A DNA stretch of 64,000 nt from contig DATDRP010000001.1 in the NCBI GenBank assembly GCA_035291665.1, forward strand, positions 2,569 to 66,568, given 5' to 3'. Both the position numbers and the translations under genes were made by a program. Numbering within the stretch: position 1 is the first letter of the stretch; each line of letters starts with the position of its first letter. This DNA is from Patescibacteria group bacterium. Lineage in GTDB: Bacteria > Patescibacteriota > Microgenomatia > UBA8517. Under the pieces are notes generated by a model. It was not told the DNA's origin. It saw only the letters and a list, made by a program, of their open reading frames with translations, and searched no databases. Shown in pieces: positions 7,387-61,947 of this stretch.

Positions 7387-7503
7387 TTCAAGAATACCCC
7401 GATTTAATCGGGGATGAATTGAATTAAGAATATAACCTCGTTTAGACGGATCCGAAAGGATACCCCGCCTGAAAGCGACAGCGAGAGGGCGGGGAGGTTT
7501 CAT
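7387..7503. repeat. intergenic double-hairpin repeat, family A (divergent copy)
   Basis: ttcaagaatacc - hairpin ccccgatttaatcgggg - atgaattgaatt .. hairpin ccccgcc..ggcgggg - aggtttcat. Same architecture as the copies at 18088, 21281, 48847 and 61829. Confidence 0.5.
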
Positions 7504-7516
7504 ATATAATAGTTCT

Positions 7517-8437
7517 ATGGAAATAAGTTTGGGGGCATCAAATTTGGAAGGTGTAAAAAATAAAGAAACAGAAACCCTGAAAAATCTTGAGTCGATGGTT
7601 AAGCTGTGGCATGAGAATGCTGATCAGATGTGGGGGAAAGAATCCTTTCATAATTGGCAGCATATAGTTGCTGTGAGGTATGCAAAAGATGAATATCTGA
7701 AAAGTTATCATGAAAAAGGACTGGATCCGCTTCGAGTTTTCGGTGATGAAGGCGAGCTTACCCGATGGAACCAGAGTAAAACCGATGAGGAAAAAATATC
7801 GCCCGAAGAATTTGAGTACGGGTTGGATGCTTCTATCTTACTCCACGACGTAGGTAATGTTCTCACCAGGATAGATGTTAATGAAGAAGGGGAACTAGTT
7901 CCAACATATCATTATCAGGAAAATACAAATCATGCAAATATTGCATCAGATAAGGTTTATATCGCGGCGGGGGCTGAAGACAGAACAAAGGAGATGATTG
8001 AACCGATTTTTACGAAACTGGGAATAGACAAGAAACTGATTCCGATGGCACAGGATTTTGTTGAGAATACCAAATATCAGTTTACCGAGGGCGGGAAAGA
8101 TACACCGTTTGCTGTTTTTATGAGAGTTGTGGATCAGTTAGGCGTAAATTATTTTTCGGAAGATGACAAACGAGTGCTTGGCTTGGCAAATGAAAATAAC
8201 ATCGAATTTCCAGAAAGGAAGTACAACCCGGATTTTGTTGTAAATTTTACGTTAAGAAGGTGTAGAGAATTGGTTCCCAACGATACAGTTCGGGATACAT
8301 TAGTTAATGGTTCCTGGGGGAAACAATACCCAAAAGAATTCCCCGGTCTTGGAACCGGTCCGATTTCGGGAGTTGAAATACGAGACATATTAGTATCAAT
8401 TAATCATCAAAAATCATCCGATGAAAGTAATTTGTAG
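7517..8437 (+). CDS. HD-domain phosphohydrolase-like protein
   Basis: Carries H..H (WQHIVAV) and the HD motif (ILLHDVGN) characteristic of the HD superfamily. Confidence 0.45.
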   Translation: MEISLGASNLEGVKNKETETLKNLESMVKLWHENADQMWGKESFHNWQHIVAVRYAKDEYLKSYHEKGLDPLRVFGDEGELTRWNQSKTDEEKISPEEFEYGLDASILLHDVGNVLTRIDVNEEGELVPTYHYQENTNHANIASDKVYIAAGAEDRTKEMIEPIFTKLGIDKKLIPMAQDFVENTKYQFTEGGKDTPFAVFMRVVDQLGVNYFSEDDKRVLGLANENNIEFPERKYNPDFVVNFTLRRCRELVPNDTVRDTLVNGSWGKQYPKEFPGLGTGPISGVEIRDILVSINHQKSSDESNL

Positions 8438-8483
8438 ATGTTGATTTAGGTCCGGATTCAAGTTAAGATTATATTTGTAAAAA

Positions 8484-9956
8484 ATGAAGAAATTAGTCTC
8501 AGCTATTATCTCTCTCGTATTATTATATTCTTTAGCGGCTTCAACTTATGCTCAGGAAAGTGGTATCCAAATAGATGCAACGGGTTCGGCTCCTGCGGGG
8601 GTCGAAACAGGAAGTGCGGGTGTTGGTACAAAAATGATTGCTCCCGATGCGATTTTCCCTCCTTATAACAACGGTTCATCGCCATTTGGGCAAAAACATG
8701 GTTATACGGTCACATTTCGGGGAAATGGCGATGCTGTTGTTAGTGCCCGGCTTGTTGTTGGGAATCAAAGCGATAAAGATCTGGAAAAGGTTACTTATCG
8801 AATTCCAAGGGTTTCTCCGACTGACATCTATGTCTTCCAGATCATAAAGCAAAAAAGCTGCAATCGATATGACTATCCGGCTTATGATCCTGTCACAAGA
8901 AGATACCCCCAGCAAGTTTGTACCGAATGGGCTGAACCGGATTATTACAACGACTATTCCTATTATCAGGCGAAATACCAAAAAGCTGATTATGAATTTT
9001 CCGGAGATGAATTAAAAATTACTTTTCCCACCCCAATTGAAAGTCAAAAAGCAGGCGCTTTATTTTTGTATTTCCGCTCATCTGGCTATGCGAAGAAGGC
9101 TTCGTTCGGTGCTTATTCATACACTTTTGAATCTCTGAAGGCGATGGACTCAATCATAAGTTTGAGCGTCGGAATCGCTACCGACTCAGATTTATACCTC
9201 AAGGGAGTTGAGGCTAATGTTAACTACAGATTCGAAGATGTCGCTCCGAAGCTAGCCTCGGTTAATTCCGGTTTCGGTGCAGTCGCCATGGAAAATTCAT
9301 CCCTTGATTCCTATGTTTCTTCTATCGGACAAGGATCTATTTACAAAACCGCTTCAAATTTGGCGCCCCTTGAGTCATACCAAGTAGAAGGCTCATATGC
9401 CGACTCACGCGCAAAACTTTATGCCAAAGAAATTATGTGGGTTGGGGGAGGAGTCCTTTTTGTAATAGTTCTTATCTTACTTCTTGTCCGATTGGTAATT
9501 AAGGTGTTCTCGCACAACGTTCGCGGCGAGGTAAAAAATGACGATAACGAAAAGTCAGGTAAAGAAGGCAACGGACAAATGATGCTTCTTGCGTTGGGAG
9601 TTGGTTTTGTTGCATCTTTCTTAACGCTTGCCTATACGGTGGGAATGTTTATTGCCGGGTCTCTCATGAGCCAAGCTTTGGGGTATTCTTTCCAGTCGGC
9701 GGTTATTGTTTTCTTTATAATTATGTCACTTATGGTGTATCCCTTGCTTTTATTCGTACCGGGCATATTAATCGGTGCAAAAAAGAAAAGCATCGGTTGG
9801 GGAGTTGCTGTGGTGGGGTCAACCTTCGGCTGGGTATTTCTATTGGGGATAGTACTTTTTGTCGTATTTTATTTTTTTCGATCAAGTGGAAATATAGGGA
9901 TTTACGATATGGTGTTGGGTAAATCGGCTCCCATGGGAAGTCCGATGATGGAGTAA
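8484..9956 (+). CDS. secreted/membrane protein (N-terminal signal peptide, C-terminal multi-TM region)
   Basis: Signal peptide MKKLVSAIISLVLLYSLAASTYAQ. The C-terminal third holds about four hydrophobic helices. Confidence 0.5.
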   Translation: MKKLVSAIISLVLLYSLAASTYAQESGIQIDATGSAPAGVETGSAGVGTKMIAPDAIFPPYNNGSSPFGQKHGYTVTFRGNGDAVVSARLVVGNQSDKDLEKVTYRIPRVSPTDIYVFQIIKQKSCNRYDYPAYDPVTRRYPQQVCTEWAEPDYYNDYSYYQAKYQKADYEFSGDELKITFPTPIESQKAGALFLYFRSSGYAKKASFGAYSYTFESLKAMDSIISLSVGIATDSDLYLKGVEANVNYRFEDVAPKLASVNSGFGAVAMENSSLDSYVSSIGQGSIYKTASNLAPLESYQVEGSYADSRAKLYAKEIMWVGGGVLFVIVLILLLVRLVIKVFSHNVRGEVKNDDNEKSGKEGNGQMMLLALGVGFVASFLTLAYTVGMFIAGSLMSQALGYSFQSAVIVFFIIMSLMVYPLLLFVPGILIGAKKKSIGWGVAVVGSTFGWVFLLGIVLFVVFYFFRSSGNIGIYDMVLGKSAPMGSPMME

Positions 9957-10011
9957 GTAAATTAGGGTAGCACCATTTTCTTCTTCTGACCAAAAAACCG
10001 GTTAAAAAATC

Positions 10012-10923
10012 TCAGATTTTTACTTTTATGGAGGGACTCATTGAAGCTTTGAAATAAGCTTTTACGATTGTTTTTGGTCCCAAAGTCTCGAGTATCACAT
10101 TCGCATTTTCAATTAATTTTTTATCATCCATACTTTCTTTTCCGAAAGTGGTGTGGATAATCGGTGCGTCTTTTTCTGTTTTTATTGTTTTTGCGTCAGC
10201 TGAAAATTCTGAAATGGCTTTTGTATTTTTGATCAAAGTTCCATTTTTCGGATTTGGCATCATGCCTTTCGGACCAAGAAGCCGAGCAAATGGCACAAGT
10301 TTTGGCATCATATCTGCTGTTGCCAATAAAACATCAAAGTCGATCTTTCCTTTTTTAAGTTTTTCTATGGTTTTATCGTCCGCTACTTCAACTGCTCTTT
10401 GTTTACCGAATGAATTGGGGAGTGTAACGTTCACATTTACACCGGTTTTTTTGACAACCAGATGCATTTCCAAAGTACCATCAAATTTGGAAATATTTGT
10501 TTCTTTTGCAAGTTTAATAGCATCGGCAGTTGAATAAAGCTTACCCGAATCGATTTTGGCTTTCGCAGCTTTATATTTCGCTCCTCTAACGCGGATTTTC
10601 TTCTGTTTTTTATTTTCAGCTTCGGTAGTTACCGTATCTTCAACGACGACTTCTTCCGCAGGAAGCTCGGCTCCGATAACTTTGATTCTTTCGCCGCCTT
10701 TTAAGCCAAGACCTGCTACTTGAGCTTTGTCTTTCTTTTTTCCGCCATCAGCCTGAACTTTCTGCTTTGCTTCTGCTTCTGCGCGTTTTTGCTGTTTAAG
10801 TTTGTATTTATCTTCGCTGGAAAGCGCTTCTTCCGTGACGCCTCCGACGAATGCTGTTTTAGTTTTTCCCATGATTTTTAATGTTTTTTTATAATTTTTC
10901 TTAAAAAATAAGTAAAAAATCAC
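10012..10923 (-). CDS. rplA: 50S ribosomal protein L1 with ~100-aa Lys/Ala/Glu-rich N-terminal extension (true start possibly ATG at 10872)
   Basis: L1 core motifs are present (FARLLGPKGMMPNPKNGT.., DFDVLLATADMMPKLV). Confidence 0.8.
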   Translation of the reverse strand: MIFYLFFKKNYKKTLKIMGKTKTAFVGGVTEEALSSEDKYKLKQQKRAEAEAKQKVQADGGKKKDKAQVAGLGLKGGERIKVIGAELPAEEVVVEDTVTTEAENKKQKKIRVRGAKYKAAKAKIDSGKLYSTADAIKLAKETNISKFDGTLEMHLVVKKTGVNVNVTLPNSFGKQRAVEVADDKTIEKLKKGKIDFDVLLATADMMPKLVPFARLLGPKGMMPNPKNGTLIKNTKAISEFSADAKTIKTEKDAPIIHTTFGKESMDDKKLIENANVILETLGPKTIVKAYFKASMSPSIKVKI

Positions 10924-10966
10924 AAGATTAGCAGCTTTAGCTGCGCACTTATGATTCGTTTATTGG

Positions 10967-11215
10967 TTACCAAGTTACTTCTTTGTTCCTGGGACACCAG
11001 TCACAACCGTTGTGCGGGACATTTATTTGCTCTAAACCCTCAACGATGCTTTTATCAGAACTTAATATAACTTTAATCATTTTTGTTGAAGGGGGTGTAC
11101 ATGCATTTCCATCTGCTTTACAAACTAATCGAGCCCCTCCTTCTTTTCCATAAGATTCAACTTCCAAATTAGGAAATAACCCTTTCATATTCTTTGATAA
11201 TGGTATGGTATGCAT
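10967..11215 (-). CDS. small Cys-containing hypothetical protein inserted between rplK and rplA
   Basis: 82-aa ORF with CKADGNAC .. CDWC spacing (possible zinc-ribbon-like). The position is atypical for this operon. Confidence 0.35.
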   Translation of the reverse strand: MHTIPLSKNMKGLFPNLEVESYGKEGGARLVCKADGNACTPPSTKMIKVILSSDKSIVEGLEQINVPHNGCDWCPRNKEVTW

Positions 11216-11324
11216 TTTTATTTTAATAAATGTAAATACTTTTACTTTTCTACTTTCCTGCTCTTTTACTCTATTTTCACTGATTTATCTGCGTAAATCC
11301 GCTTCTAATCCGTGATAATCTTTA

Positions 11325-12403: not shown

Positions 12404-12404
12404 A

Positions 12405-12761: not shown

Positions 12762-12772
12762 TTTTTACTAAA

Positions 12773-13860: not shown

Positions 13861-13864
13861 ATTT

Positions 13865-17957: not shown

Positions 17958-18087
17958 TTAATTAAAAACGAAAAAAAGGCTTGAAAATAGTGAAAATAGT
18001 AAGTTATAATATTGACTCGTGTTTGCAACAATGAATACATTTTTCGGAAAACAAATTTTTGTTACCCTCGTTCTTGGCTATAACAGA

Positions 18088-18190
18088 TTTCAAGAAAACC
18101 ACCGAGTTTGACTCGGTGAATGAATTGAATTCTGATATGTCATCCTCCTTTCGAGGAAAAACCCGAGTCTGACTCGGGGGAGGATGTCAT
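18088..18190. repeat. intergenic double-hairpin repeat, family A (full copy)
   Basis: tttcaagaaaacc - hairpin caccgagtttgactcggtg - aatgaattgaattctgatatgtcatcctcc - tttcgaggaaaaa - hairpin cccgagtctgactcggg - ggaggatgtcat. Confidence 0.7.
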
Positions 18191-18300
18191 TGGATGAGCC
18201 AAGAGGAGGCTTGTGTTTAGTTAATAATAAACAAATATTTTTACACAAACCTCCGAAAGGGGGTTTTTTAGTTTAAAAAAGTTAGTTGGGAGGTGAAAGC

Positions 18301-21259: not shown

Positions 21260-21280
21260 CTTTCAGAAGTTTTGACAGCG

Positions 21281-21354
21281 TTCAAGAAAACCACCGAGTC
21301 TGATCGAGTCAAACTCGACAACCAAGTCAGACTTGGCTCGGGGGAGGATGTCAT
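21281..21354. repeat. intergenic double-hairpin repeat, family A (short variant)
   Basis: ttcaagaaaaccaccgagtctga - palindrome tcgagtcaaactcga - .. ctcggg - ggaggatgtcat. Confidence 0.6.
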
Positions 21355-28211: not shown

Positions 28212-28290
28212 AGAGCCTTAATCTTTTAAGTTCGAACATCCTTTCATCCATCCCTATTTTTTTGTGTAATTTTGAAGCTAAAATTTGTCA

Positions 28291-28384
28291 GCAGCCCTGG
28301 ATGTCGTAGATCCTGAGTGAAACCGAAGGAGAAAGTATACACACCAAATTATTTTTTCAAAATAATTACGAACTTTTTACGCTC
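28291..28384. repeat. family B intergenic repeat (full copy)
   Basis: gcagccctggatgtcgtagatcctgagtgaaaccgaaggagaaagtat .. ccaaattattttttcaaaataattacgaactttttacgctc. The inner palindrome is aattatttt-ttc-aaaataatt. Confidence 0.7.
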
Positions 28385-28419: not shown

Positions 28420-29112
28420 ATGAAGTTGGGTTATATTGTAAAATGTGTAAGTAATATGAAATTACTTTTAACATCAGCGGGATTAAGCAATAAAACAATC
28501 GTAGAGGTGTTTAATAATCTAGTTGGCTTGCCAAATGAGAAAATTAAGATAGTCTATATCCCTACAGCCTCAAATGTGGAGGAGGGGGACAAGGGGTGGC
28601 TGATTGATGATTACACCAATCTTAAAAACCAAAAATATGGTTGTATAGATATTGTGGATATAGCTGCAGTTCCACGGGATATTTGGCTTCCAAGAATCAA
28701 GGAAGCAAATGTTATTTTTATTGGTGGTGGGAATACATACTACCTGATGTCTTGGCTAATAAAATCTGGTTTAGATAAAATTCTTCCAGATTTGTTAAAA
28801 ACAAGAGTTTATGCAGGAATTAGTGCTGGGAGTATGGTAGCAACTATAAATTTACGGTTGAGCACTTCACAAAAATCGTACTCAGAAAAGGTATATCGTT
28901 TAGAAAATGAGAATGGTTTGGGTTTGGTTGATTTTCACATAAGGCCACATCTTAATTCGGATTTCTTTCCTAAGGTTAGGATAAAATTTATTAAGGAAAT
29001 TGCAAAAGATATTCCTGAACCAATTTATGTAATTGATGATAATACTGCGGTAGTAGTAAACAGTGATAAAGTCAGTGTTGTATCTGAAGGAAAATGGAAA
29101 AGGTTCAACTAA
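28420..29112 (+). CDS. peptidase S51 family (dipeptidase E / cyanophycinase-like)
   Basis: S51-like layout with a GISAGS nucleophile motif and upstream FIGGGNTYYL. Confidence 0.6.
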   Translation: MKLGYIVKCVSNMKLLLTSAGLSNKTIVEVFNNLVGLPNEKIKIVYIPTASNVEEGDKGWLIDDYTNLKNQKYGCIDIVDIAAVPRDIWLPRIKEANVIFIGGGNTYYLMSWLIKSGLDKILPDLLKTRVYAGISAGSMVATINLRLSTSQKSYSEKVYRLENENGLGLVDFHIRPHLNSDFFPKVRIKFIKEIAKDIPEPIYVIDDNTAVVVNSDKVSVVSEGKWKRFN

Positions 29113-29881: not shown

Positions 29882-29989
29882 AAGTATATCACTCCGGAGG
29901 TTGGTTACAATTTGGTTTTTTTAATTTCTAGACAGTTCGATCAGGAATTCTTTTCTAAGCAGTCCTGGTACGTTTCAGTTTATATGAAA

Positions 29990-30080
29990 ATACCCTGGAT
30001 GTCGTAGATCCTGAAAGGAGTCGAAGGGGAAAATACCCAAGTCAATTATTTTTTCAAAATAATTACGAACTTTTTCGCAC
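29990..30080. repeat. family B intergenic repeat (full copy, diverged 5' half)
   Basis: ccctggatgtcgtagatcctgaaaggagtcgaaggggaaaatacccaagtcaattattttttcaaaataattacgaactttttcgcac. Confidence 0.65.
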
Positions 30081-30127: not shown

Positions 30128-30814
30128 TCAAGATTTTCTAACCACCAATTCAAGGCAGAGTAGGTTGTTTGCTTTTGATTTAACATAAATTTTTTGTTTT
30201 CCGAAACGTTCTGTGTAATTGTTAATCTCAAAATTAGTTATACCAGCTTTGTCAAACATCTCCTCATATTGATCTCTGGAAAATCTAGTCTTAATCATAC
30301 CCTCACCATCAACAAAAACCCCCTTATCAATCTCTCTTGAGCCGTCTCGTAAAAAATTCATTTCTTCTAAGTCTTCTGGAGATTTAACTACTATATATGC
30401 TGTTCCGTTATTTTTTAAGACCCGATGAATTTCTTTCAGAATTTCTAGCGTTCTTTCTTGAATAAAGTAATGAATCGAAAGTCTTGAGTAGAGAATATCA
30501 AAGAAGTTATCTGGTGAGGGAATTCTATCTACAGCTAAATCTACCTGGGATGTTTTGAGCCTGGATTCAAAACTTTCACCCTCTACTTTCAGGTGTGCCC
30601 TTGTTAAAGCAGAGCTTGAAATGTCATACAAAAATACAGAATGGCCGTTTTTCAGGAAATAGAGGCTGTCTGTTCCGTCTCCTCCTCCCAAATCGCAAAC
30701 AACAGAATTTTTCGGAAACAACTTTTCCTTTTCAACACCATAATTTGATGGCAACCTAACCATTGGGTGATTTTCGTGACTTTTATTCCAATGCGATCCT
30801 GCGTCGAACGTCAT
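30128..30814 (-). CDS. class I SAM-dependent methyltransferase
   Basis: Motif I VVCDLGGGDGTDSLYF (G-x-G-x-G) plus a downstream acidic residue. Confidence 0.6.
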   Translation of the reverse strand: MTFDAGSHWNKSHENHPMVRLPSNYGVEKEKLFPKNSVVCDLGGGDGTDSLYFLKNGHSVFLYDISSSALTRAHLKVEGESFESRLKTSQVDLAVDRIPSPDNFFDILYSRLSIHYFIQERTLEILKEIHRVLKNNGTAYIVVKSPEDLEEMNFLRDGSREIDKGVFVDGEGMIKTRFSRDQYEEMFDKAGITNFEINNYTERFGKQKIYVKSKANNLLCLELVVRKS

Positions 30815-30845
30815 GTTTGAAGTATATATTACCTGAGGCTAAAAA

Positions 30846-30900
30846 GCAGCCCTGGATGTCGTAGATCCTGAGTGAAACCGAAGGAGAAAGTATTCGAACC
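30846..30900. repeat. family B intergenic repeat (5' half only)
   Basis: gcagccctggatgtcgtagatcctgagtgaaaccgaaggagaaagtattcgaacc is near-identical to the 5' half of the 28291 copy. Confidence 0.65.
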
Positions 30901-32079: not shown

Positions 32080-32170
32080 AAGGTGCGTATTTCAGTTCAG
32101 GATACCAGTTTTAACTAAAGCTAATTATACTACACGTTTCTTGCTTTTCAGAGTTATTGTAAATACTATG

Positions 32171-32202
32171 TCATGTATCATATATCATTATATGATACAT
32201 GG
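32171..32202. repeat. 32-bp hyphenated palindrome, copy P2 (spacer tcat)
   Basis: tcatgtatcatata-tcat-tatatgatacatgg. Same arms as P1 with the spacer reverse-complemented; one mismatch at the final base. Confidence 0.75.
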
Positions 32203-32340
32203 GTATGAATGCGGCCTAATTCAAGATAAAGGTATATGCAAAGTTATTTTATGTTATAGCTAATAAATTTATCCGTAGGTGAAGATTCAAATAGTTTCTT
32301 AACTTGACTTATTAATACAAATAAATCTGGAGTGTAATGA

Positions 32341-32745
32341 TCAAAAAGGTGAAATTTTTCTTCTTGTGTTGCTTCGCGAGATGTCAATTTCGTTTAAGGC
32401 TTTTATCACGTCAATTAACTTGGATTTCAATGATGATTGTTTTATACGATTAAAAAGCACTTTTTTGTGTTCAGTCGTAATTACTTTATTTTGAAGAGAA
32501 AAGCGAATGATGGTTTGTCTGGTTGTTTTCAAAATATTAGCTAACTCATCCTGAAAAAATCCTTTGTCCCGAAGATAAAAATATCCTAATCGTTTTTTTA
32601 CCATTTTGAGCTCCGTTTTTGTGAATACTGCAGTTAGAAGTGCGAGCACTTCAGAGTTGGGTAGGTTGGTAAAAGTACTTCTTAATATTTCATCAAGTTC
32701 CTTGTCAACGGAATCTTCTAATTTTTGTTTTGAAACGTGTGTCAT
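32341..32745 (-). CDS. TrpR/YerC-like helix-turn-helix DNA-binding protein
   Basis: LKMVKKRLGYFYLRDKGFFQDELANILKTTRQTIIRFS follows the Trp-repressor-family pattern (..R..I...L..G.SQRE...LG.S..TITRGS). Confidence 0.5.
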   Translation of the reverse strand: MTHVSKQKLEDSVDKELDEILRSTFTNLPNSEVLALLTAVFTKTELKMVKKRLGYFYLRDKGFFQDELANILKTTRQTIIRFSLQNKVITTEHKKVLFNRIKQSSLKSKLIDVIKALNEIDISRSNTRRKISPF

Positions 32746-32773
32746 GTAACATATATCATTATATGTGACATGA
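32742..32773. repeat. 32-bp hyphenated palindrome, copy P3, overlapping the start codon of the TrpR-like gene
   Basis: tcatgtaacatata-tcat-tatatgtgacatga. The cat at 32743-32745 is the ATG of the minus-strand gene. Confidence 0.75.
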
Positions 32774-32916
32774 GGATCGATTACAATTACGTTTATTTAG
32801 TTAATTTGTTTTAAAAAAAACATAATGATATTAAAAAAATAATGGAAGCTTGTTTAAAAGTGTATTTTTCAATCAAAGAATAAAGAAGGAATAATGGGAG
32901 AAGATATTCTTGTAGG

Positions 32917-35991: not shown

Positions 35992-36849
35992 ATGTCGGGA
36001 AGAAGTGTTGTTGCGAGTATTTTGGGGGTGTTGGTATTAATAGGCGGAGTTGTTGCCGGAATACTTCTGGTGAGAGAAAGACAGGATCTCAGAGAAAAAG
36101 CTGCAGTTCCAGGTGGTCAGGCAAGAGTTTCACTTTTTCCAACAACAGGTAACTTCAAGGTTGGTGACACATTACCGGTGAGCATCTATTTCAACACATC
36201 GGATGTTAGTATTTCGAGTATTAATGTGAGGTTAAGGTATCCTTTTTCGGGGACTACTCCGGAGATTTCAGCCTCAAATGTTACGATCAACTCAGTATTG
36301 GCGAGTTCCGGAAAATGGAGCTGTTCAAAAAAATCAATAACAGCCGATGGAGGAAATGTTTTAATCGATATCGGATGTTCCATTGAAAGTGCTACCGGTT
36401 ATAAAACCAATTCAGACACCCTTTTGGCGACATTTGACTTAAAAGTTGATCGAATCCCATCCACCAACCCTTTTAAAATTACTTTTGACCCCGCTCAAAG
36501 TATTGTTACACAGTTATCAAACGGTCAGGATATTTTGAACATTCCGGATCAGAATGTGGGTGGAGGAAACTACACAATCAGTGCCGGAAGCGACGATCAG
36601 ACAAATCCGACTGTTACCCCAACGAAACAACCGACGGCCACACCGACAAAAGTTCCGACTAATACTCCGACAACGACAGTAAGACCAACGGGAACAATTA
36701 CGCCAACTGTAACTGTGAAACCCACTTCATCGGCTGTAACTCCAACAACAGCTGTGAATTTGCCGGATGCGGGTTTTGGTGCTCCAACTTTAATGGGCTT
36801 AGGGCTTGGAGTGGTATTTATCCTTTCGGCAGTACTTCTTGCATTATAA
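35992..36849 (+). CDS. cell-surface protein with C-terminal sortase-type sorting signal
   Basis: N-terminal TM/signal, Thr/Pro-rich linker, then C-terminal NLPDAG followed by a hydrophobic stretch (an LPXTG-like motif + TM). Confidence 0.5.
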   Translation: MSGRSVVASILGVLVLIGGVVAGILLVRERQDLREKAAVPGGQARVSLFPTTGNFKVGDTLPVSIYFNTSDVSISSINVRLRYPFSGTTPEISASNVTINSVLASSGKWSCSKKSITADGGNVLIDIGCSIESATGYKTNSDTLLATFDLKVDRIPSTNPFKITFDPAQSIVTQLSNGQDILNIPDQNVGGGNYTISAGSDDQTNPTVTPTKQPTATPTKVPTNTPTTTVRPTGTITPTVTVKPTSSAVTPTTAVNLPDAGFGAPTLMGLGLGVVFILSAVLLAL

Positions 36850-36854
36850 TAGTG

Positions 36855-36900
36855 TTCAAGAAAACCCCACCCAAGGCGGAACTTTCCTGATTCATTCAAT
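36855..36900. repeat. family A repeat, 5' box only (partial)
   Basis: gttcaagaaaaccccacccaaggcgg.. shares the ttcaagaaaacc box with family A. Confidence 0.35.
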
Positions 36901-37953
36901 AAAACAGGCATCACCGAATGAAAAGAAGCGATATCTTTTTTGAATGGCTTTTTCGTAGGCATTTCCGATGATACTTGATTCAAAGTCCGAAAAAACATCT
37001 TCGGTATTCGGCTGGGAAACAAACGCACTGATCAATAAGAGAAGTGTTGATTTTGGGAGATGAAAGTTAGTTATCTTGGCGTCGACAAATTTGAATTTAT
37101 ACGGAGGATAGATGAATAATTCAGTATATGGTTTAGTGTATTTTGCAGATAGGGAATTATTTTTTAAAGACAAAGTTTCTAGCACGCGGGTGGTTGTTGT
37201 TCCGACTGCAATGATGCGCTTACCGGATTTTTTGGCATCATTAAGTCTTTTAATCGTCTCCGGTTCAACCTCAAAATACTCTTCATGGATTTTATGGTCT
37301 AAGATATTTTTTTCTTTAACAGGAGCAAATGTACCAAGGCCGACATGAAGGGTCAGAAATTCCATCCGGATACCTTTTCTTTTTAACTTTTTCATTAGAT
37401 CTTTAGTGAAATGAAGTCCGGCTGTAGGAGCCGCGGCTGAGCCTACAGTTTTTGCATAGACTGTTTGATACTTATCCCGAAGATCACGCTCGGAAAGGCT
37501 GGATTTTATATATGGAGGAATCGGAGTATGGCCAATAATACCGATTTTATGAAGTAAATCTATATCATCCAGGTCAAATTTCAGGTGAGTAATGTAATTC
37601 TCTCTTTTTATAACTTGCGCCTCCATATCGTCAAAGAAAATCCGATCATACATAAATAGTCCCGGTTTTGTGATTACTTCACAGACTGATTCAGGTAGAA
37701 AACGTAAAATAAGAACTTCGACATTGCCTTTCGTTTTTTTCTTCCCATATATCCGTGCCGGAAAAACTTTGGATTTATTGAAGACTAAAACATCATTTTT
37801 ATTTAGGAGACTTGGAAGTTCAGAAAACTTAAAATGAGAAATTTTCTTACTTTCCCTGTTAACAACCAAAAGCCTTGACGAATCTCTTGGGTTTGCAGGT
37901 TTATTGGCAATCAGCTCACGGGGAAGAAAGTAGTCGAATTTTGAAATATCCAT
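36892..37953 (-). CDS. queA: S-adenosylmethionine:tRNA ribosyltransferase-isomerase
   Basis: MDISKFDYFLPRELIANKPANPRDSSRLL.. and internal GHTPIPPYI / TAGLHFT are characteristic QueA motifs. Confidence 0.85.
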   Translation of the reverse strand: MDISKFDYFLPRELIANKPANPRDSSRLLVVNRESKKISHFKFSELPSLLNKNDVLVFNKSKVFPARIYGKKKTKGNVEVLILRFLPESVCEVITKPGLFMYDRIFFDDMEAQVIKRENYITHLKFDLDDIDLLHKIGIIGHTPIPPYIKSSLSERDLRDKYQTVYAKTVGSAAAPTAGLHFTKDLMKKLKRKGIRMEFLTLHVGLGTFAPVKEKNILDHKIHEEYFEVEPETIKRLNDAKKSGKRIIAVGTTTTRVLETLSLKNNSLSAKYTKPYTELFIYPPYKFKFVDAKITNFHLPKSTLLLLISAFVSQPNTEDVFSDFESSIIGNAYEKAIQKRYRFFSFGDACFIE

Positions 37954-47263: not shown

Positions 47264-47328
47264 TGCTCCAAAAATTAGCAGGAGACTTCGGATAATTCTA
47301 ATTTGAAAATTATCACGTTAATACTATA

Positions 47329-47360
47329 TCATGTTACATATATCATTATATGTGACATGA
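47329..47360. repeat. 32-bp hyphenated palindrome, copy P4
   Basis: tcatgttacatata-tcat-tatatgtgacatga lies in the mrdA-dprA intergenic region. Confidence 0.75.
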
Positions 47361-47539
47361 AAAGGCACGAATATTATACATAATTAATAAACTGATGGTT
47401 AAATTCAAATTCTATAAGATAACCACAATTTCCTTTAACCGCGTTTACTGCGAACAATTTCTTGCATATCAACGCTTTTTTGGATGCGAACTTTGAAATA
47501 ATTGCGATGTTCAAAATGGCGGCATTTTGTTTATCCGCC

Positions 47540-47660
47540 TTCGCAGAAAACCGTGAGTCTGAGCTCTCGGATGAATGCGAAGTGTTTTTCCGCTTCGGCG
47601 GATTTTGCTCCGACGAAGCGAAGGAGAAGAAACCACTGGCGTAAGCTAGTGGAGCTTCAT
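47540..47660. repeat. degenerate family A-like repeat
   Basis: gcagaaaaccgtgagtctgagctctcggatgaatg.. resembles the family A 5' box and hairpin. Small hairpins follow (ccgcttcggcgg; gcttcg..cgaagc). Confidence 0.3.
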
Positions 47661-48810: not shown

Positions 48811-48846
48811 GTGTAAGTCAAAGAAGTAATTGACTTCATAGCAGAA

Positions 48847-48986
48847 CCCAAGAAAACCCAGAGCGTCCTTCGACATGCTCAGGATGGTGAGCGAAGCCGA
48901 ATCATGAGCTCGTGGGATGAATTGGATTCTGATATGTCATCCTCCGTTAAAGGAAACCCCATTCGTAAGAATGGGGAGGATGTCAT
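48847..48986. repeat. intergenic double-hairpin repeat, family A (full copy)
   Basis: ccaagaaaaccc .. gggatgaattggattctgatatgtcatcctcc - gttaaaggaaa - hairpin ccccattcgtaagaatgggg - aggatgtcat. Confidence 0.65.
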
Positions 48987-49023
48987 AAACTTAGACGCAG
49001 ACTTAATCTTAAACTATTTATAT

Positions 49024-51039
49024 ATGAATTTGATAATAGTTGAATCACCTACTAAAGCGCGTACATTATCTCGGTTTTTGGGGAAAGAATACGATGTGGA
49101 AGCAACCAAGGGTCATATTAAGGATTTACCTAAAAGTACGTTGGGTGTGAATGTCGAAAAAAATTTCACACCTGAATATATTGTCGTTGCAAAACAAACT
49201 GATGTTATTGAGACTCTTAAAAAAGCCTCAAAAAAAGCAAATATTGTCTATCTTGCCACTGACCCTGATCGAGAGGGAGAAGCAATTGCCTCTCATGTTG
49301 AAGAAATTGTTGGAGAGTTTGTTGCGGAGGATAAAATAAAAAGGATAGTTTTTCACGAAATTACCAAAGAAGCAGTAGAGGAAGCGATAGGTAGCCCGCG
49401 AAAAGTTGATCAGCATCTTGTGAATGCACAAATAGCCAGGCGTGTTTTAGATCGATTGGTAGGATATAAATTATCTCCTCTTTTATGGAAGAAAGTCAGA
49501 CGGGGACTTTCGGCAGGTCGTGTCCAAAGTGTGGCAGTTCGGTTGATCGTTGAACGCGAAAGAGAAATTTCTGCTTTCAAGCCGGTTGAGTATTGGGAAA
49601 TATTTTCAGATGTAAGTGGTATCGATGCACCCAAAAAAGATATTTTTAGGGTGAAACTACTAAAAATTAACGGAAAACCCGCAGAGGTTGGTGACGGTGA
49701 AACAGCAAAATCGGTTGTTACCGATTTGAAGGTATTTCCTTACAGAATCTTAGAGGTTACGAAAAAAGAAGTCCATAAACATCCATACCCTCCATATACC
49801 ACTTCCACATTAACTCAAGCGGCAGCGAGAGTGTTCAGGTGGTCTTCAAGAAAAACCATGAGCATTGCACAAAGTCTTTACGAACAGGGATTAATTACAT
49901 ACCATCGTACGGACTCAACCAACCTTGCGGCATCAGCTGTTTTAAAAGCCAGAAGTTTTATTAAAAAGGAATACGGTGAGCAGTATCTGCCATTAAGTCC
50001 GAATTTCTACAAAACAAAATCAAAAGTTGCGCAGGAGGCGCATGAAGCTATTCGCCCCTCAAACGTCAGTATTACAAGCGGAAATGGAAATGCCAAATTT
50101 ACCAGCGATATGGAAAGATTGTATGAGCTGATTTGGAAAAGGTATGTCACGTGTCAAATGTCAGATAGTGTTTACGATGAAACTACAATAGATGTCGAAG
50201 CAAAGAAAGAGGTTGCTTCTTCAAAGTCATATTTACTTCGGACCAGGGGAGCGATAATGAAATTCGACGGATGGAAGAAACTTTATAAAGGATCAAAATC
50301 CTCTGAGGATGATGTTGTTAACTTACCCGAAGTTGTCAAAGACCAACTTCTTACTCTGATCGATGTGATATCTGAGCAAAAGTTCACGCAAGCGCCGGCG
50401 AGATATTCAGAAGCGATGCTTATTAAAACTCTGGAAAGTTTGGGGATAGGCCGGCCGTCAACGTACGCTCCGACTATTTCAACAATCCAGGTACGAAGTT
50501 ATGTTGAAAAAATTGAAGGGCGATTCAAACCAACTCCGGTCGGAATTGCTGTAAATGACTTTTTAATTACGAATTTTCCTGATGTTTTTGAATATAAATT
50601 TACGGCAGATATGGAAAACTCGCTTGATGATATTGCAAACGGTGAAGAAAAATGGAAAGAGTCGATTGGGGATTTTTACCGACCATTCGAGAAGAAATTG
50701 GCAGATGTTGAAAAAAAAGCAAAAAGGGTGAAAATTGAAGCCGAGAAACTTGGCCGGAAATGTCCCGATTGTAAAGATGGAGAGTTGGTAATTCGGATTG
50801 GACGTTTCGGCAGGTTTATTTCCTGTTCGAATTTTCCCGATTGCAGACACACGGAAAAATATGTTGAAAAAGCTCATATGAAATGTCCCGATTGTAAAAA
50901 AGGCGACGTTATTATCAAAAAGACACAAAAAGGAAAAAGGTTTTTCGGATGCAGCCGTTACCCGAAGTGTAAGTGGGCCAGCTGGAGAAAACCTGAGAGA
51001 GTAAAAAAGCTAACTAAAGAAACCTCTAAACAAAGTTAA
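49024..51039 (+). CDS. topA: DNA topoisomerase I with two C-terminal zinc ribbons (likely start ATG 49024; tracked ORF from 48904 runs through the upstream repeat)
   Basis: Toprim N-terminus (MNLIIVESPTKARTL), catalytic region, and C-terminal CPDCKDGELV..CSNFPDC plus CPDCKKGDV..CSRYPKC. Confidence 0.85.
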   Translation: MNLIIVESPTKARTLSRFLGKEYDVEATKGHIKDLPKSTLGVNVEKNFTPEYIVVAKQTDVIETLKKASKKANIVYLATDPDREGEAIASHVEEIVGEFVAEDKIKRIVFHEITKEAVEEAIGSPRKVDQHLVNAQIARRVLDRLVGYKLSPLLWKKVRRGLSAGRVQSVAVRLIVEREREISAFKPVEYWEIFSDVSGIDAPKKDIFRVKLLKINGKPAEVGDGETAKSVVTDLKVFPYRILEVTKKEVHKHPYPPYTTSTLTQAAARVFRWSSRKTMSIAQSLYEQGLITYHRTDSTNLAASAVLKARSFIKKEYGEQYLPLSPNFYKTKSKVAQEAHEAIRPSNVSITSGNGNAKFTSDMERLYELIWKRYVTCQMSDSVYDETTIDVEAKKEVASSKSYLLRTRGAIMKFDGWKKLYKGSKSSEDDVVNLPEVVKDQLLTLIDVISEQKFTQAPARYSEAMLIKTLESLGIGRPSTYAPTISTIQVRSYVEKIEGRFKPTPVGIAVNDFLITNFPDVFEYKFTADMENSLDDIANGEEKWKESIGDFYRPFEKKLADVEKKAKRVKIEAEKLGRKCPDCKDGELVIRIGRFGRFISCSNFPDCRHTEKYVEKAHMKCPDCKKGDVIIKKTQKGKRFFGCSRYPKCKWASWRKPERVKKLTKETSKQS

Positions 51040-51583: not shown

Positions 51584-51683
51584 TAACTTATAATAAACAC
51601 TAGTTTTTTTATTATCTTTATAAGTCAGTTCCATTTAAGGGAATGTATTATTAAACAAATACAAATTTAGACAATTTACTATA

Positions 51684-51715
51684 TCATGTAACATATAATG
51701 ATATATGTTACATGA
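51684..51715. repeat. 32-bp hyphenated palindrome, copy P5 (perfect)
   Basis: tcatgtaacatata-atga-tatatgttacatga lies between dcd and the thyX-tmk-glyA block. Confidence 0.8.
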
Positions 51716-51771
51716 CGTAGAAGAGAGTTTTGATGATTGACAATATGGGAAATGTTTTTTAATTTGAAGAG

Positions 51772-57711: not shown

Positions 57712-57778
57712 ATAGATATTCTTCAAACTAACGCTCTTTGAAAGTTGATATTTATGGAAAAATTCCTATAATAATGAC

Positions 57779-58063: not shown

Positions 58064-58226
58064 CGGCTATTGTTAAAGTCAATCAGGTGGTATAAAATAC
58101 CCAAAGTATAAAACACATCGGTCTGGCCTCCTGAAGCTATAAGACCGGTGGATGAAATAAGGAGGCGAACACAAGAAGGTTTTTGATAAACTTTTTGTAT
58201 TTCAAACTTAGCTTAAATAATTTTAT

Positions 58227-59060: not shown

Positions 59061-59075
59061 ACTCATAAAATTGAT

Positions 59076-59534
59076 ATGGCTGTAAAAATAAGTGCGGATG
59101 ATATCCGTAAAGTTAAGGAAGAAACAGGATCTCCTGTGATCAGGGCTAAAGCGGTTTTGGAAGAGCAGAAAGGCGATATTAAAAAGGCAATTGAGATTCT
59201 TCGGAAAGAAGGTTTTGAAAAAACCCAAAAGAGAGCAGGTAGAGAGACTAAAGCCGGAATTTTATCATCGTATGTCCATCACACACAAAAAGTTATAGGT
59301 ATCGCTGAGGTTTTTTGCGAAACAGATTTTGTCGCAAAAAATGAACTTTTTCAACAACTCGGTAAAGATATTGCTATGCAAGTCGCTTCCATGGGAGAGA
59401 AAGATATTTTAGATCAGGAATTTATAAAGGATCCTTCAAAAAAGATTTCAGATCTTTTGAAAGAGGTAATTGCAAAAACCGGTGAAAATGTAGTTTTGGG
59501 TAGGGTTATGCAAATTTCTTTGGGAGAAAAATAA
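59076..59534 (+). CDS. tsf: elongation factor Ts (short form)
   Basis: DIRKVKEETGSPVIRAKAVLEEQKGDIKKAIEILRKEG (UBA-like N-domain) and ETDFVAKNELFQ. Confidence 0.8.
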   Translation: MAVKISADDIRKVKEETGSPVIRAKAVLEEQKGDIKKAIEILRKEGFEKTQKRAGRETKAGILSSYVHHTQKVIGIAEVFCETDFVAKNELFQQLGKDIAMQVASMGEKDILDQEFIKDPSKKISDLLKEVIAKTGENVVLGRVMQISLGEK

Positions 59535-59617
59535 TCAGTTTAGTCGGTTTCTTCAAACGCTATCGTAAATTTTCAAATAAGAGTTAACAATTTTGAAAAT
59601 ACGTTATAATAGATATT

Positions 59618-60172
59618 ATGGACGATGCAAATACAAGCAAGAAAATGCAGGACATCGTTGACCTGATTGTAAAAGATATTGCCTCCATTAGAACAGGAAG
59701 AGCCACCCCCGCACTTGTTGAAGATCTATCAGTTGTCGTTTACGGAGGGGTACAGAAGCTACGGATTCAGGAACTGGCAACAACCAGCACTCCCGACGCA
59801 CAAACTATAGTTATTGACCCTTGGGATAAATCAATCATTGGCGAAATTAGAAAAGGAATTCTGGAAGCAAATGTCGGAATGAATCCGTCAATAGACGGTC
59901 AGATTTTGAGAATTGCATTTCCACCTCTTACTACTGAAGACCGCGAAAAATATGTAAAACTTCTTTCTCAAAAACTTGAAAGCGGACGTGTGATGGTGAG
60001 ACAAGTCAGGGGTGAGGCTATGCGCGATGTCAAAAAGTCGTTTGAAGAAAAAGAAATCAGTGAAGATGAAAAATTTGCTGCTGAGAAAAAAGTTCAGGAT
60101 TTAACCGATGAATATATTGAAAAAATAAATACAGTTGGAGAAAAGAAAAAGCAGGAACTTCTGCAACTATAA
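59618..60172 (+). CDS. frr: ribosome recycling factor
   Basis: Carries the RRF motifs IRTGRATPALVEDL, LTTEDREKYVK and VRQVRGEAMRDVKK. Confidence 0.85.
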   Translation: MDDANTSKKMQDIVDLIVKDIASIRTGRATPALVEDLSVVVYGGVQKLRIQELATTSTPDAQTIVIDPWDKSIIGEIRKGILEANVGMNPSIDGQILRIAFPPLTTEDREKYVKLLSQKLESGRVMVRQVRGEAMRDVKKSFEEKEISEDEKFAAEKKVQDLTDEYIEKINTVGEKKKQELLQL

Positions 60173-60389
60173 TATAGGATTAGAATCGCACGAAATCAAT
60201 CAAGGAGAAATATTAAATAGTTACCAAACTTCAGTCCCGGTTAAGTTAATTTTAAGTATATAATTTTATTTTTAAGAGATACGAAAGCATAAATTATTTC
60301 AATTGAGGTAATTCATTTCTTGATTGTGCAAGATTGATTTTTAATTGTTAAACTGTAATTTCGAATTATAAATGGTAAACTCTTAACGT

Positions 60390-61511
60390 ATGTTTGCGTC
60401 AATTCTTACATTTATTATTGTTTTGTCCATATTGGTCTTGGTGCATGAATTCGGACACTACATTGTTGCAAAAAAAAGCGGTATTTTGGTGGAGGAATTC
60501 GGGTTGGGGCTTCCTTTTGCACCAAAAATATTCGGAAAAAAAATCGGCGAAACGACATATTCAATTTATCCAGTTCTCTTTGGCGGATTTGTCCGGCTAC
60601 ATGGTGAGCTGACCGAAGATGGAGTAACCGACCATAAACGCGCTTTTATAAACCAAAAAAGCTTTACAAAAGTAAAAGTGATAACTGCGGGTGTAATAAT
60701 GAACCTGATTTTAGGGATAGTGTGTTTTTCTATAATTTACAGCGTTCAGGGGATTCCAAAACCGGGTAATAATGTAACCATAATCGATGTTGCTCCCGGG
60801 ACGCCCGCTTCGGATGCGCAACTACCGAAAAATTCTATTGTTAAGAAAGTTAATTATGTGGAGGTAACCTCCGAAAAACTTTTTATTGAAGAAGTAGCAA
60901 AATTCAAAGGATCGGAAATATCATTGACACTGTTGCCTGAAAACTCGGAAGAATCGAAAGTGTTTAAGATTACTCCAAGGAGCGAGTATCCAGAAGGCCA
61001 GGGACCTTTGGGGATAGTAATTTCAACTCCTTATGAAACGTATTTTCCGCCAATCTGGCAAAGGCCATTCTTGGGAGTTTACTATGGATTTCAGGAAGCT
61101 TTCTTTTGGGGGTCGTCAATCGCACTTTCTCTCTTTGAACTCATAAAAAATCTTTTCAGCGGAATTGTGCCAAAAGGTTTGGCCGGACCGGCGGGGCTTT
61201 ATGTGATAACAGATGAAACGAGAAAAGCCGGGATATTACCTCTGATAAGTCTATTGGGGGTAGTTTCCATAAACTTGGCAATTTTGAATATTCTTCCGAT
61301 TCCCGCACTTGACGGCGGGCGGCTTTTATTCATTTTAATTGAGAAATTATTCGGTAGAAAAATTGTTCCGAAAGTAGAAGCAGCTATCCATGGCGTTGCG
61401 ATGGTTATCCTTGTAGGGCTGATGGTTTTGGTGACAATTAAGGAAGTCATAACTATCCGAAGAGTGGGTTTTTCAGGTTATTTAAACGAGGTGATGATGA
61501 GTGGTGAGTAG
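60390..61511 (+). CDS. rseP: RseP-like site-2 zinc metalloprotease (M50) with PDZ domain
   Basis: HEFGHYIVAKKSG (HExxH within the first TM), a central PDZ-like segment, and C-terminal LNILPIPALDGG (LDG motif). Confidence 0.8.
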   Translation: MFASILTFIIVLSILVLVHEFGHYIVAKKSGILVEEFGLGLPFAPKIFGKKIGETTYSIYPVLFGGFVRLHGELTEDGVTDHKRAFINQKSFTKVKVITAGVIMNLILGIVCFSIIYSVQGIPKPGNNVTIIDVAPGTPASDAQLPKNSIVKKVNYVEVTSEKLFIEEVAKFKGSEISLTLLPENSEESKVFKITPRSEYPEGQGPLGIVISTPYETYFPPIWQRPFLGVYYGFQEAFFWGSSIALSLFELIKNLFSGIVPKGLAGPAGLYVITDETRKAGILPLISLLGVVSINLAILNILPIPALDGGRLLFILIEKLFGRKIVPKVEAAIHGVAMVILVGLMVLVTIKEVITIRRVGFSGYLNEVMMSGE

Positions 61512-61522
61512 AAATCTGTGTG

Positions 61523-61804
61523 TTACCTTGGGTGAGCATGGATACATATTTTTAAATTGTATTGTTTTGCATCTTCACTATTGAGTTGGCCATCAACAAA
61601 TTCGATTTTTGTATTAATACTTAAGTTTCCATGAAATATGCTTCCGGAGAAACAGTAAACATCTCCGTTTGTTAATGAAAAGGTTTCACAACAACCCACC
61701 AGACGTCTTTTAGGATCTTTTGTCGTGGTAACCGTGGCTTCCCGGGCTTCCAGGAAACTATTTAAAGGCCCCTTGCATTTTACGGGTGGAACAAATTCAG
61801 ACAT
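61523..61804 (-). CDS. hypothetical small protein, possibly cupin-like (tracked ORF 61523..61972 has a spurious N-terminal extension encoded by a family A repeat)
   Basis: Internal start MSEFVPPVKCKG.. ; motif GDVYCFSGSIFHGNLSI resembles cupin motif 2. Confidence 0.3.
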   Translation of the reverse strand: MSEFVPPVKCKGPLNSFLEAREATVTTTKDPKRRLVGCCETFSLTNGDVYCFSGSIFHGNLSINTKIEFVDGQLNSEDAKQYNLKICIHAHPR

Positions 61805-61828
61805 ATAGATTTCGATATTATAACAGAA

Positions 61829-61947
61829 ATCAAGAAATCCACACCCTTTAGGGCGTGGATGAATTGAACTCAGACCTGCCTGCCGGCGGGCACGGTATGT
61901 CATCCTCCTTAGGGAAACCCCCGAGTCTGACTCGGGGGAGGATGTCA
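61829..61947. repeat. intergenic double-hairpin repeat, family A (full copy with extra GC-rich insert)
   Basis: tcaagaaatcc .. gtggatgaattgaactcagacc - insert tgcctgccggcgggcacgg - tatgtcatcctcc - ttagggaaa - hairpin cccccgagtctgactcggggg - aggatgtcat. Confidence 0.65.

Follow-up and report, generated by a model that had tools for sequence, protein, structure and literature searches.

Copies of Family A in the window

The window analyzed here is a 64,000-nucleotide stretch of a Patescibacteria group bacterium genome (contig DATDRP010000001.1 of assembly GCA_035291665.1, positions 2,569 to 66,568), and the element under study, Family A, is a short repeat with two hairpins that is scattered between its genes. 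Of its seven copies in the window, five are complete, one is internally rearranged, and one is only the remnant of a left end; all are on the + strand (Table 1). An earlier reading of the sequence, here called the original prediction, had named seven sites, and a copy is present at each of them. The site at 36855 is partial, as it had said. The copy at 21281, listed there among the full or near-full ones, is a rearranged mosaic, and the one at 47540, listed as degenerate, is a complete copy of a diverged subfamily. The conserved block opens with TTAT(A)ACAG, about 10 nt before the start that had been assigned to the element. The open reading frame (ORF) map of the window places every copy between genes, in agreement with the original prediction. 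Across the elements collected from other genomes, orientation is unrelated to that of the neighboring genes.

Copy 4 occupies the spacer between dprA and topA. This spacer also holds an element in another species (locus L014), and the flanks in the two species are unalignable, which is compatible with either ancient retention or recurrent insertion. Copy 7 lies in the spacer before the stop codon (36892-36894) of a convergent gene (36892..37953). Two mechanical ORFs run into copies, as had been noted before: that of topA, which opens at 48904, and 61523..61972. The public topA call (711 aa) begins within copy 4. The conserved TopA N-terminus, MNLIIVESPTKA, begins at 49025, and the extra stretch of the public call corresponds to window positions 48904-49024. 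About 40 residues of the 711-aa call are therefore probably a spurious extension.

A covariance model was trained on an alignment of homologues from other genomes and then run on the window. It returned five matches, all on the + strand, and gave no significant score for copies 3 and 7. Every complete copy folds into two long hairpins, with z-scores against shuffled sequences of -4.7 to -6.9 for RNA and -4.6 to -7.8 for DNA (-7.75 for copy 2). The fold of copy 3 reaches a z-score of just -2.2. At its two ends this copy still has the linker and guide of the left end (ACAGCGTTCAAGAAAA) and the tail of the right end; between them, a mosaic made up of hairpins of the CGAGTYNGACTCG type, including an inverted one, takes the place of the core. 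The 3' box of the original prediction, GGAGGATGTCAT, occurs exactly four times on the + strand of the window and its near-complement ATGTCATCCTCC three times, against 0.15 expected. The 30-nt core has two window matches with at most one mismatch, where none is expected. The 5' box alone is not enriched at two mismatches in the window (27 occurrences against 16 +/- 4 by chance), and it is informative solely when combined with the rest of the element.

Table 1. Family A copies in the window and an associated promoter-like site. Guides are the four nucleotides before each hairpin; RNA fold z-scores are relative to shuffled sequences.
Feature	Position	Strand	Left flank	Left guide; hairpin 1	Right guide; hairpin 2	Right tail	Model match	RNA fold z
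Copy 1, complete but diverged	7381..7503	+	TTAT, target/left cleavage tetranucleotide, outside the element (7377..7380, +)	AATA; 7397-7413	GATA; 7463-7494	AGGTTTCAT, TCAT at end	7377-7503, 40 bits, E 2e-7	-4.7
Copy 2, best preserved	18082..18190	+	CTAT (18078-18081)	AAAA; 18099-18118	hairpin 18162-18178	GGAGGATGTCAT	18078-18190, 108 bits	-6.9
Copy 3, internally rearranged derivative, termini kept only	21275..21354	+				GGAGGATGTCAT	not significant	
Copy 7, left-end remnant	36848..36879	+	TTAT (36844-36847)	AATAGTGTTCAAGAAAA, then decayed hairpin			not significant, 9.4 bits	
Copy 6, complete, diverged subfamily	47535..47660	+	TTAT (47531-47534)	AAAA; 47551-47570	GAAA; 47633-47652	AGCTTCAT	47531-47624, 27 bits	-5.4
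Copy 4, dprA-topA spacer	48840..48986	+	TCAT (48836-48839)	AAAA; 48857-48916 (enlarged)	GAAA; 48957-48976	AGGATGTCAT	48836-48986, 95 bits	-4.7
Copy 5, with nested extra GC-rich hairpin (61875-61895)	61822..61948	+	TTAT (61818-61821)	AAAT; 61839-61858	GAAA; 61918-61938	AGGATGTCAT	61818-61948, 66 bits	-5.2
Copy 5 junction promoter-like site, CTGTTATAAT, extended -10	61814..61825	-						

Ends, guides, and target

Homologues were collected from one genome per species with the exact pattern TGTCATCCTCC-N10-40-GGAGGATGTCA. This first scan gave 58 stretches, almost all from Candidatus Woesebacteria or other Microgenomates/Patescibacteria metagenome-assembled genomes (MAGs), and about 16 of the 58 came from the single genome GW2011_GWA1_39_21. 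When aligned, the matches form a sharply bounded unit of about 106-117 nt with the layout TTAT-AACAGCATTCAAGAAAA-hairpin 1-ATGAATTGAACGCTGATATGTCATCCTCC-TTTAGAGGGAAA-hairpin 2-AGGATGTCAT. The modules of the original prediction have to be redefined: its 5' box is a left linker ending in the guide AAAA, and its 3' box is a right tail ending in the cleavage site TCAT. The exact boundaries can now be used for masking and annotation.

The ends of this unit resemble those of IS608. The target of IS608, TTAC, doubles as its left cleavage site; it is not part of the insertion sequence (IS) and precedes the left hairpin by 19 nt, whereas the right cleavage site belongs to the IS and follows the right hairpin at 10 nt (PMC3201880; PMC5934647). 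A guide of 4 nt directly precedes each hairpin foot, AAAG at the left end and GAAT at the right, and the guide pairs include A+16:T-3 and A+17:T-4 (PMC3201880; PMC5934647). IS608 gives a pairing rule in which guide position 1 pairs with site position 2, position 2 with 1, position 3 with 3 (non-canonically), and position 4 with 4. In Family A, the target TTAT is likewise outside the left end, at a distance of 17 nt from hairpin 1, and the right site TCAT is inside, ending 10 nt past the foot of hairpin 2. Its 4-nt guides also sit at the hairpin feet, and both AAAA on the left and GAAA on the right are what the rule predicts. Across subfamilies, GAAA occurs with TCAT in 41 cases, AAAA with TTAT in seven, GAAA with TTAT in six (a G.T wobble), and AAAA with TCAT in one. 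The Fisher p for this covariation is 0.0013, a value that carries no correction for relatedness although the copies are related and hence not independent. Among the guide positions, it is the third that varies in the alignment, and in IS608 this position pairs non-canonically. The rule also holds in the gene-carrying relative L190 (GAAG with TCAC) and in IS200 elements of the Candidate Phyla Radiation, CPR (AGTG with CTAC; AGGT or AGAT with an upstream CTAA). The series TTAT, TCAT, TCAC, and CTAC is a natural set of guide and cleavage-site variants.

TTAT is present at 98 of 145 distinct left flanks, compared with a background of 0.8%, and conservation drops sharply upstream of it. In loci L016 and L019, a main-type element begins directly after the TTAT that closes an element of another subfamily, A2. 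TTAT is therefore the target and lies outside the element. The original prediction had proposed a search for target-site duplications; none was found, and the longest direct repeat is 0-1 nt in 47-48 of 52 full elements with either choice of boundary.

We consider it highly probable that Family A is a gene-less derivative of an IS605-group element (IS200/IS605 family), similar to a palindrome-associated transposable element (PATE) or a miniature inverted-repeat transposable element (MITE), that has spread in Microgenomates. This reading explains the covariation of the hairpins, the short invariant flanks, the sharp ends, and the constant TTAT on the left. It also explains the bias toward the G-rich strand and the near-identical copies within one genome, which are described below. 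The original suggestion of a REP/MITE-like mobile element with hairpin-preserving variation was right in kind, and the type of element can now be specified. Family A shares with IS608 and the IS605 group of Helicobacter and Campylobacterota the subterminal hairpins at both ends on one strand, the AT extension 3' of the left hairpin, the absence of classical terminal inverted repeats and target duplication, and a bias toward the lagging-strand template. Unlike IS608, it has no tnpA or tnpB within its 105-125 nt, its target and right site are TTAT and TCAT rather than TTAC and TCAA, and its hosts are CPR Microgenomates. A classical MITE was considered and rejected: the ends have only a weak 10-nt similarity (TTATAACAGC versus TTATGACATC), and there is no duplication.

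Gene-less PATEs are a recognized product of the IS200/IS605 family (PMC10055086; see also PMC3119063). Like the PATEs of Haloquadratum and Geobacillus, Family A consists of a left and a right end only, is present in multiple copies, and is presumed to be mobilized by TnpA in trans (PMC10055086). It differs from known PATEs in its phylum and sequence, in being too short for a typical TnpB guide RNA, and in being conserved, with many subfamilies, across a class-level clade; in addition, no resident transposase was identified for it in the window or the fetched CPR loci.

By homology with IS608, a Y1 HUH transposase (TnpA) supplied in trans would bind the + strand hairpins of both ends when these become single-stranded at the replication fork. 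A 4-nt guide at each hairpin foot would select the cleavage site of that end by base pairing: the left guide AAAA closes the 17-nt linker before hairpin 1 and its AT extension, and the right guide GAAA precedes hairpin 2 and the 10-nt tail that ends in TCAT. The top strand would then leave as a circle and be inserted 3' of TTAT in a single-stranded target, with no duplication.

Conserved hairpins

Covariation was assessed with RNAalifold and by explicit counting of pairs in 37 non-identical copies. Four helices are present, and 96.3% of cells are paired. Cells changed on both sides number 126, against 34 +/- 6 in column shuffles and at most 26 when the partners are slid. The covariance analysis that had been proposed earlier thus gives a strong signal. 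Compensatory changes occur in 13 of the 14 hairpin pairs, and the order of the hairpins is fixed. The long right-hand helix is invariant in the 37 copies because the search pattern imposed it. In a second scan for the left half only, which is free of that bias, this helix covaries among subfamilies, with the variants CATCCTCC/GGAGGATG, CGTCCTCC/GGAGGACG, CATCTTCC/GGAAGATG, AATTCTCC/GGAGAATT, and CATTTTC/GAAAATG. Both outer helices are likewise retained with changed sequence in window copies 1 and 6: in copy 1, compensatory changes put AACCTC/GAGGTT in place of CATCCTCC/GGAGGATG, and in copy 6 the helices flanking both hairpins have a wholly different sequence (CTTCGCA/TGCGAAG). The original prediction had viewed the recurrent dyad in the short hairpin as a possible protein-binding site. 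The sequence of the dyad varies freely, but the hairpins, as single-stranded DNA, are predicted by homology to be binding sites of a Y1 transposase.

In hairpin 1, G.T exceeds A.C on the + strand by 25 to 11 in the larger set, and folding slightly favors the + strand over the - strand (86 versus 54). A hand count in the first 37-sequence alignment (G.U 16, A.C 14) showed no strand signal. The excess and the better fold fit a functional top strand, either as DNA or as RNA. They also speak for a rival reading, a multi-copy structured RNA transcribed from the + strand, such as a small-RNA gene, a cis-regulatory module, or a guide-RNA-like module (for instance an omega-RNA-type scaffold), with the covariation of the four helices reflecting RNA structure. 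PATEs elsewhere often contain omega-RNAs (PMC10055086), and the unpaired stretches of Family A are highly conserved between species, including a purine-rich 5x5 internal loop, GAAAA/AUGAA. This conserved loop, however, coincides exactly with an IS608-type guide plus the 3' AT extension, the module doubles as the left end of ISs that carry tnpA and tnpB, and G.T is also the best-tolerated mismatch in single-stranded DNA. Known TnpB guide-RNA scaffolds are longer than the Family A element, and no tnpB was found among the CPR loci. Rfam contains no family for the element at the gathering threshold (the window yields four tRNAs only), and a search with copy 2 at E <= 10 returned nothing meaningful. 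Gene contexts are nearly equal in number (++ 15, -- 15, divergent 11, and convergent 8, from crude gene calls). Conservation ends at the two boundaries, and the flanks have neither a conserved promoter on the upstream side nor a + strand terminator on the downstream side. A structured RNA is for these reasons very unlikely to account for the family, and the small-RNA gene that had been suggested is not supported. The unusually conserved outer helices might serve an RNA role, guide-RNA-like or as a processing signal.

Ribozymes, K-turns, and loop-E motifs were compared by eye with the GAAAA/AUGAA loop and did not fit. Small ORFs starting at the ATG in GGAGGATGTCAT or in the minus-strand ATGACATCC were rejected because the length of the element varies out of frame and the spacing between Shine-Dalgarno sequence and ATG is zero.

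Distribution and mobility

The second, independent scan used the left-half pattern TTCAAGAAAAC-N12-30-GATGAATTGAA on metagenome contigs and matched at least 117 of them, mainly from groundwater, sediment, and lake samples. Viral contigs gave 0 matches, and a phage origin was rejected on this basis. The wider copy search proposed in the original prediction therefore finds many varying copies, in dozens of Woesebacteria/Microgenomates (CPR) genomes and in over 100 metagenome contigs, rather than the window copies alone. Literature searches on repeats and RNA motifs of CPR, Woesebacteria, or Microgenomates yielded no description of the element. Family A and its host range appear to be undescribed so far, gene-less IS200/IS605 elements being an already known kind. 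An abundant, formerly unannotated repeat of Woesebacteria/Microgenomates can thus be assigned, with the confidence given above, to the IS200/IS605 relics.

A Woesebacteria-type element is also present in MAGs labeled 'uncultured Gammaproteobacteria' (TPA_asm): L007, L009, L011, L014, L021, L022, L031, L038, L041, L044, L051, L052, and L054. L014 has the dprA-topA synteny in common with the window. The Gammaproteobacteria label of these MAGs is probably wrong.

Several observations point to movement. In GW2011_GWA1_39_21, five copies are 98-99.5% identical and have unrelated flanks. A presence/absence difference, which had been proposed as a sign of mobility, was found between L041, which has the element, and the orthologous locus L042, from which it is absent. 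In the population of the window, every contig with genes for the flanking proteins of the window has the same sequence as the window, and no empty site was found. Contigs from independent short-read assemblies of this population (L182-L188) stop inside or at the edge of elements, at 48934, 48949, 61818, 61839, and 61873, as is expected of a dispersed repeat, which makes the element one cause of broken contigs in these MAGs. It accounts for assembly breaks and probably also for spurious N-terminal extensions in public calls, such as that of topA. The spread of the family would point to past activity of single-strand 'peel and paste' elements in the ultra-small genomes of CPR bacteria.

The strand that carries the element is also biased. 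GC skew is positive across the entire window, which has all seven copies on the + strand. Among other loci, the local GC skew in the orientation of the element is positive in 45 of 61 (p = 0.0003), and it remains positive in 30 of 43 after correction for gene orientation (p = 0.014). The G-rich strand that carries the element is the lagging-strand template, which is the strand preferred by the IS200/IS605 family (PMC5027513).

Relatives that carry transposase genes

Protein sequences of IS608, IS200, and REP-associated tyrosine transposases (RAYTs) were searched by tblastn against all fetched DNA (1.17 Mb). Three loci matched, L175, L124, and L117, all of them retrieved with the left-half pattern. 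The module TTCAAGAAAAC-hairpin-GATGAATTGAA, with TTAT 18 nt before it, is the left end of complete IS605-type elements. L175 and its longer twin L190 have TTAT-CAAAAACATTCAAGAAAA-CCCCTTTCTTTAAGACGGGG-ATGAATTGAA followed by tnpA and tnpB. Their tnpA encodes 138-143 aa (Pfam Y1_Tnp, E 2e-42), and their tnpB encodes 445 aa with HTH_OrfB_IS605, OrfB_IS605, and Cas12f1-like TNB domains. The left-end module of Family A is identical to that of L175 and L190 over 22 specified bases. The same left end is followed by tnpA in L124 and by tnpB only in L163. At its right end, L190 reads GAAG-CCACCACTTCTATAAGTGGTGG-TAGTTCAC, which is similar to the A2 tail TAGTTTAT. L117 has an IS200-type tnpA between CCACGGCTTTAGCCGTGG hairpins, and this adjoins a complete A2 double-hairpin element with the tail GGTAGTTTAT. 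Gottesmanbacteria, the Patescibacteria group, and Peregrinibacteria have annotated relatives of the L117 TnpA, in loci that are IS200 elements with the same type of hairpin; IS200-type TnpA genes are thus present in Microgenomates and Patescibacteria.

Some of the findings weigh against a derivation from an IS605-group element. The closest source-named relatives of the L175 TnpA are in Campylobacterota, not in CPR, and neither the 64-kb window nor the fetched Woesebacteria/CPR loci yielded a tnpA. The CPR IS200 elements examined carry other guides and tails, so that no cognate transposase was found for the main subfamily. None of the gene-carrying ISs found has the right end of this subfamily, with AGGATGTCAT and the long helix CATCCTCC/GGAGGATG; this extra helix, in which the right tail pairs with sequence 5' of the right guide, was not seen in the autonomous L190. 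The strand bias is about 70-75% rather than absolute, and it is based on local GC skew in 8-kb pieces, not on mapped origins. Several window copies have imperfect guide and cleavage-site pairs (CTAT, TCAT, AAAT) and may be immobile; they are probably fossils. Finally, the unpaired parts of the element show unusual conservation between species that share just 65-72% identity in their genes, and the outer helices exceed a minimal TnpA substrate, so that an added RNA-level or host function may exist.

A different kind of transposase could also be responsible. Repetitive extragenic palindromic (REP) sequences are single units of 20-40 nt with a 5' GTAG that occur in inverted pairs and are tied to a single-copy RAYT, and RAYTs are related to the IS200 TnpA. 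Family A could be such a REP sequence or a bacterial interspersed mosaic element (BIME) maintained by a domesticated RAYT, rather than a MITE of an IS. It is intergenic, hairpin-forming, abundant, and terminator-like, its copies are modular and mosaic-like, here and there with a hairpin unit turned around (copy 3), and the tail of one subfamily (GGTAGTTTAT) contains GTAG. The unit is bipartite, however, with distinct ends in a fixed order and orientation that are bounded by a target and a terminal cleavage site as in an IS, and not a 20-40 nt unit with a 5' GTAG in inverted pairs. Its left end is common to ISs that carry tnpA and tnpB, and an E. coli RAYT sequence had no tblastn match in the 1.17 Mb of loci. 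Inverted pairs of elements do occur, and a transposase flanked by such a pair was considered and rejected, since the pairs enclose a peptidase/TPR-like gene in L030 and dnaA in L026. We give hardly any credence to maintenance by a RAYT. The Correia repeat enclosed elements (CREE) of Neisseria have 26-bp terminal inverted repeats, a TA duplication, and outward-facing promoters. Family A resembles REP/BIME and Correia elements as a small intergenic hairpin repeat of high copy number that, as they can, may serve as a terminator, but its IS605-like ends match neither arrangement.

Promoter-like and terminator-like features of the bottom strand

Derivation from an IS605-group element would also have consequences for the strand opposite to the element. 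On the minus strand, a T-run follows each hairpin because the guides are A-rich, and the element hairpins are the top terminator-like minus-strand sites in both 15-kb regions scanned. Of the small-RNA or terminator module suggested in the original prediction, the terminator part is partly borne out, for the opposite strand. The A-rich guides would become U-tracts after GC hairpins in bottom-strand transcripts, a predicted side effect of the transposon ends. In addition, the minus-strand junction of element and target, TGTT/ATAAT (TGTTATAAT), is an extended -10 sequence. TGTT comes from the element, ATAA from the target, and the last base from the flank. At copy 5, the corresponding site (CTGTTATAAT) consists of the end of the element, the TTAT target, and one flank base, and an ATG at 61806-61804, 12 nt downstream, opens a 94-codon ORF (61523..61806).

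A minus-strand ORF of at least 80 codons starts within 60 nt of 37 of 104 elements. Seventeen of these 37 ORFs start 6-9 nt past the hexamer, and 19 start 6-10 nt past it (p = 6e-11 against a uniform spread). In L026, TGTTATAAT and 6 nt precede the ATG of rpmH, beside dnaA. In L041, a gene resembling that of a penicillin-binding protein (PBP) follows the junction; its orthologue in L042, which lacks the element, has its own TGCTAAAAT at an equal distance. From these sequences we infer that the element either inserts into the complement of -10 boxes (ATTAT/A) and regenerates them, or donates a promoter. Insertions into the -10 boxes of leaderless genes would rebuild the promoter and hence could be tolerated or co-opted. 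The junction promoter suggests a route to neutral or useful insertions in compact genomes with leaderless genes.

These features raise the question of whether the copies are host 'punctuation', that is, immobile domesticated cassettes kept for bottom-strand termination and an extended -10, with a transposon origin that is only historical. The terminator-like hairpins, the junction, and the spacing of the 17 ORFs, which include rpmH and the PBP-like gene, would all be expected. The box is degenerate in copies 3 and 4, window copies without a minus-strand gene, and the dprA-topA spacer is occupied in two species. Yet just about 18% of the elements adjoin a minus-strand start, and half of them are antisense to both neighbors or lie between convergent genes. 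The promoter comes mostly from the TTAT target and may merely mark insertion into existing -10 boxes, and the near-identical copies in one genome represent recent spread. Such a purely domesticated state is rather unlikely. A related proposal, which we regard as still more doubtful, is that the relics now belong to the gene-expression grammar of Microgenomates, as portable cassettes that would stop antisense or read-through transcription by two bottom-strand terminators and rebuild an extended -10 located 6-8 nt before leaderless genes such as rpmH, and that they are under purifying selection even without a transposase.

TATAAT 6-8 nt before start codons, with no Shine-Dalgarno spacing, is common in this material (window positions 7504-7519 and many locus flanks). 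One example is CATATATAATAGTTCTATG ahead of the gene at 7517. This arrangement suggests that leaderless transcripts may be common in the lineage. In L026, positions 351-2454, an inverted pair of elements flanks dnaA in a Patescibacteria MAG, in what is likely the origin region. A + strand terminator-like hairpin is also found at 18247-18266 (AAACCTCCGAAAGGGGGTTT followed by TTTAGTTT), 57 nt past copy 2, in a region without a long ORF.

Other repeats

The window contains other intergenic repeats as well. A second family (D1) has five copies, at 3976-4028, 32154-32206, 32725-32777, 47312-47364, and 51667-51719. Each has a long AT-rich palindrome, CATGTATCATATATCATTATATGATACATG, after ACTATGT, and the sequence is unrelated to Family A. 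A third repeat, CCCTGGATGTCGTAGATCCTGAG..GAAGGAGAAAGTATACACACC followed by AATTATTTTTTCAAAATAATTACGAACTTTTT, occurs at 28290-28378, 29988-30075, and 30845-30900, that is, three times within 2.6 kb, beside the genes at 28420, 30128..30814, and 30939. In a different Woesebacteria genome (L016, 5994-6104), a truncated left end of Family A is joined to a sequence related to this third repeat.

Some sequences are inserted within Family A itself. A GC-rich hairpin, CCTGCC...GGCAGG, is nested variably in copies (window copy 5, L049, L054, and L013) and is also present beside a CPR IS200 element (L176, about 960-990); it may be a separate mini-repeat. The GW2011_GWA1_39_21 copies L020, L027, L034, L037, L047, and L053 have an insert between the left and right halves, composed of a CCCGCCTGCTTAGCTGCGCAAGCTAGCGGGCAGG hairpin and of GCTTTGCTTTTGATAAAATCTTAA repeated in tandem (about 24 nt per unit), which lengthens the element to about 200 nt.

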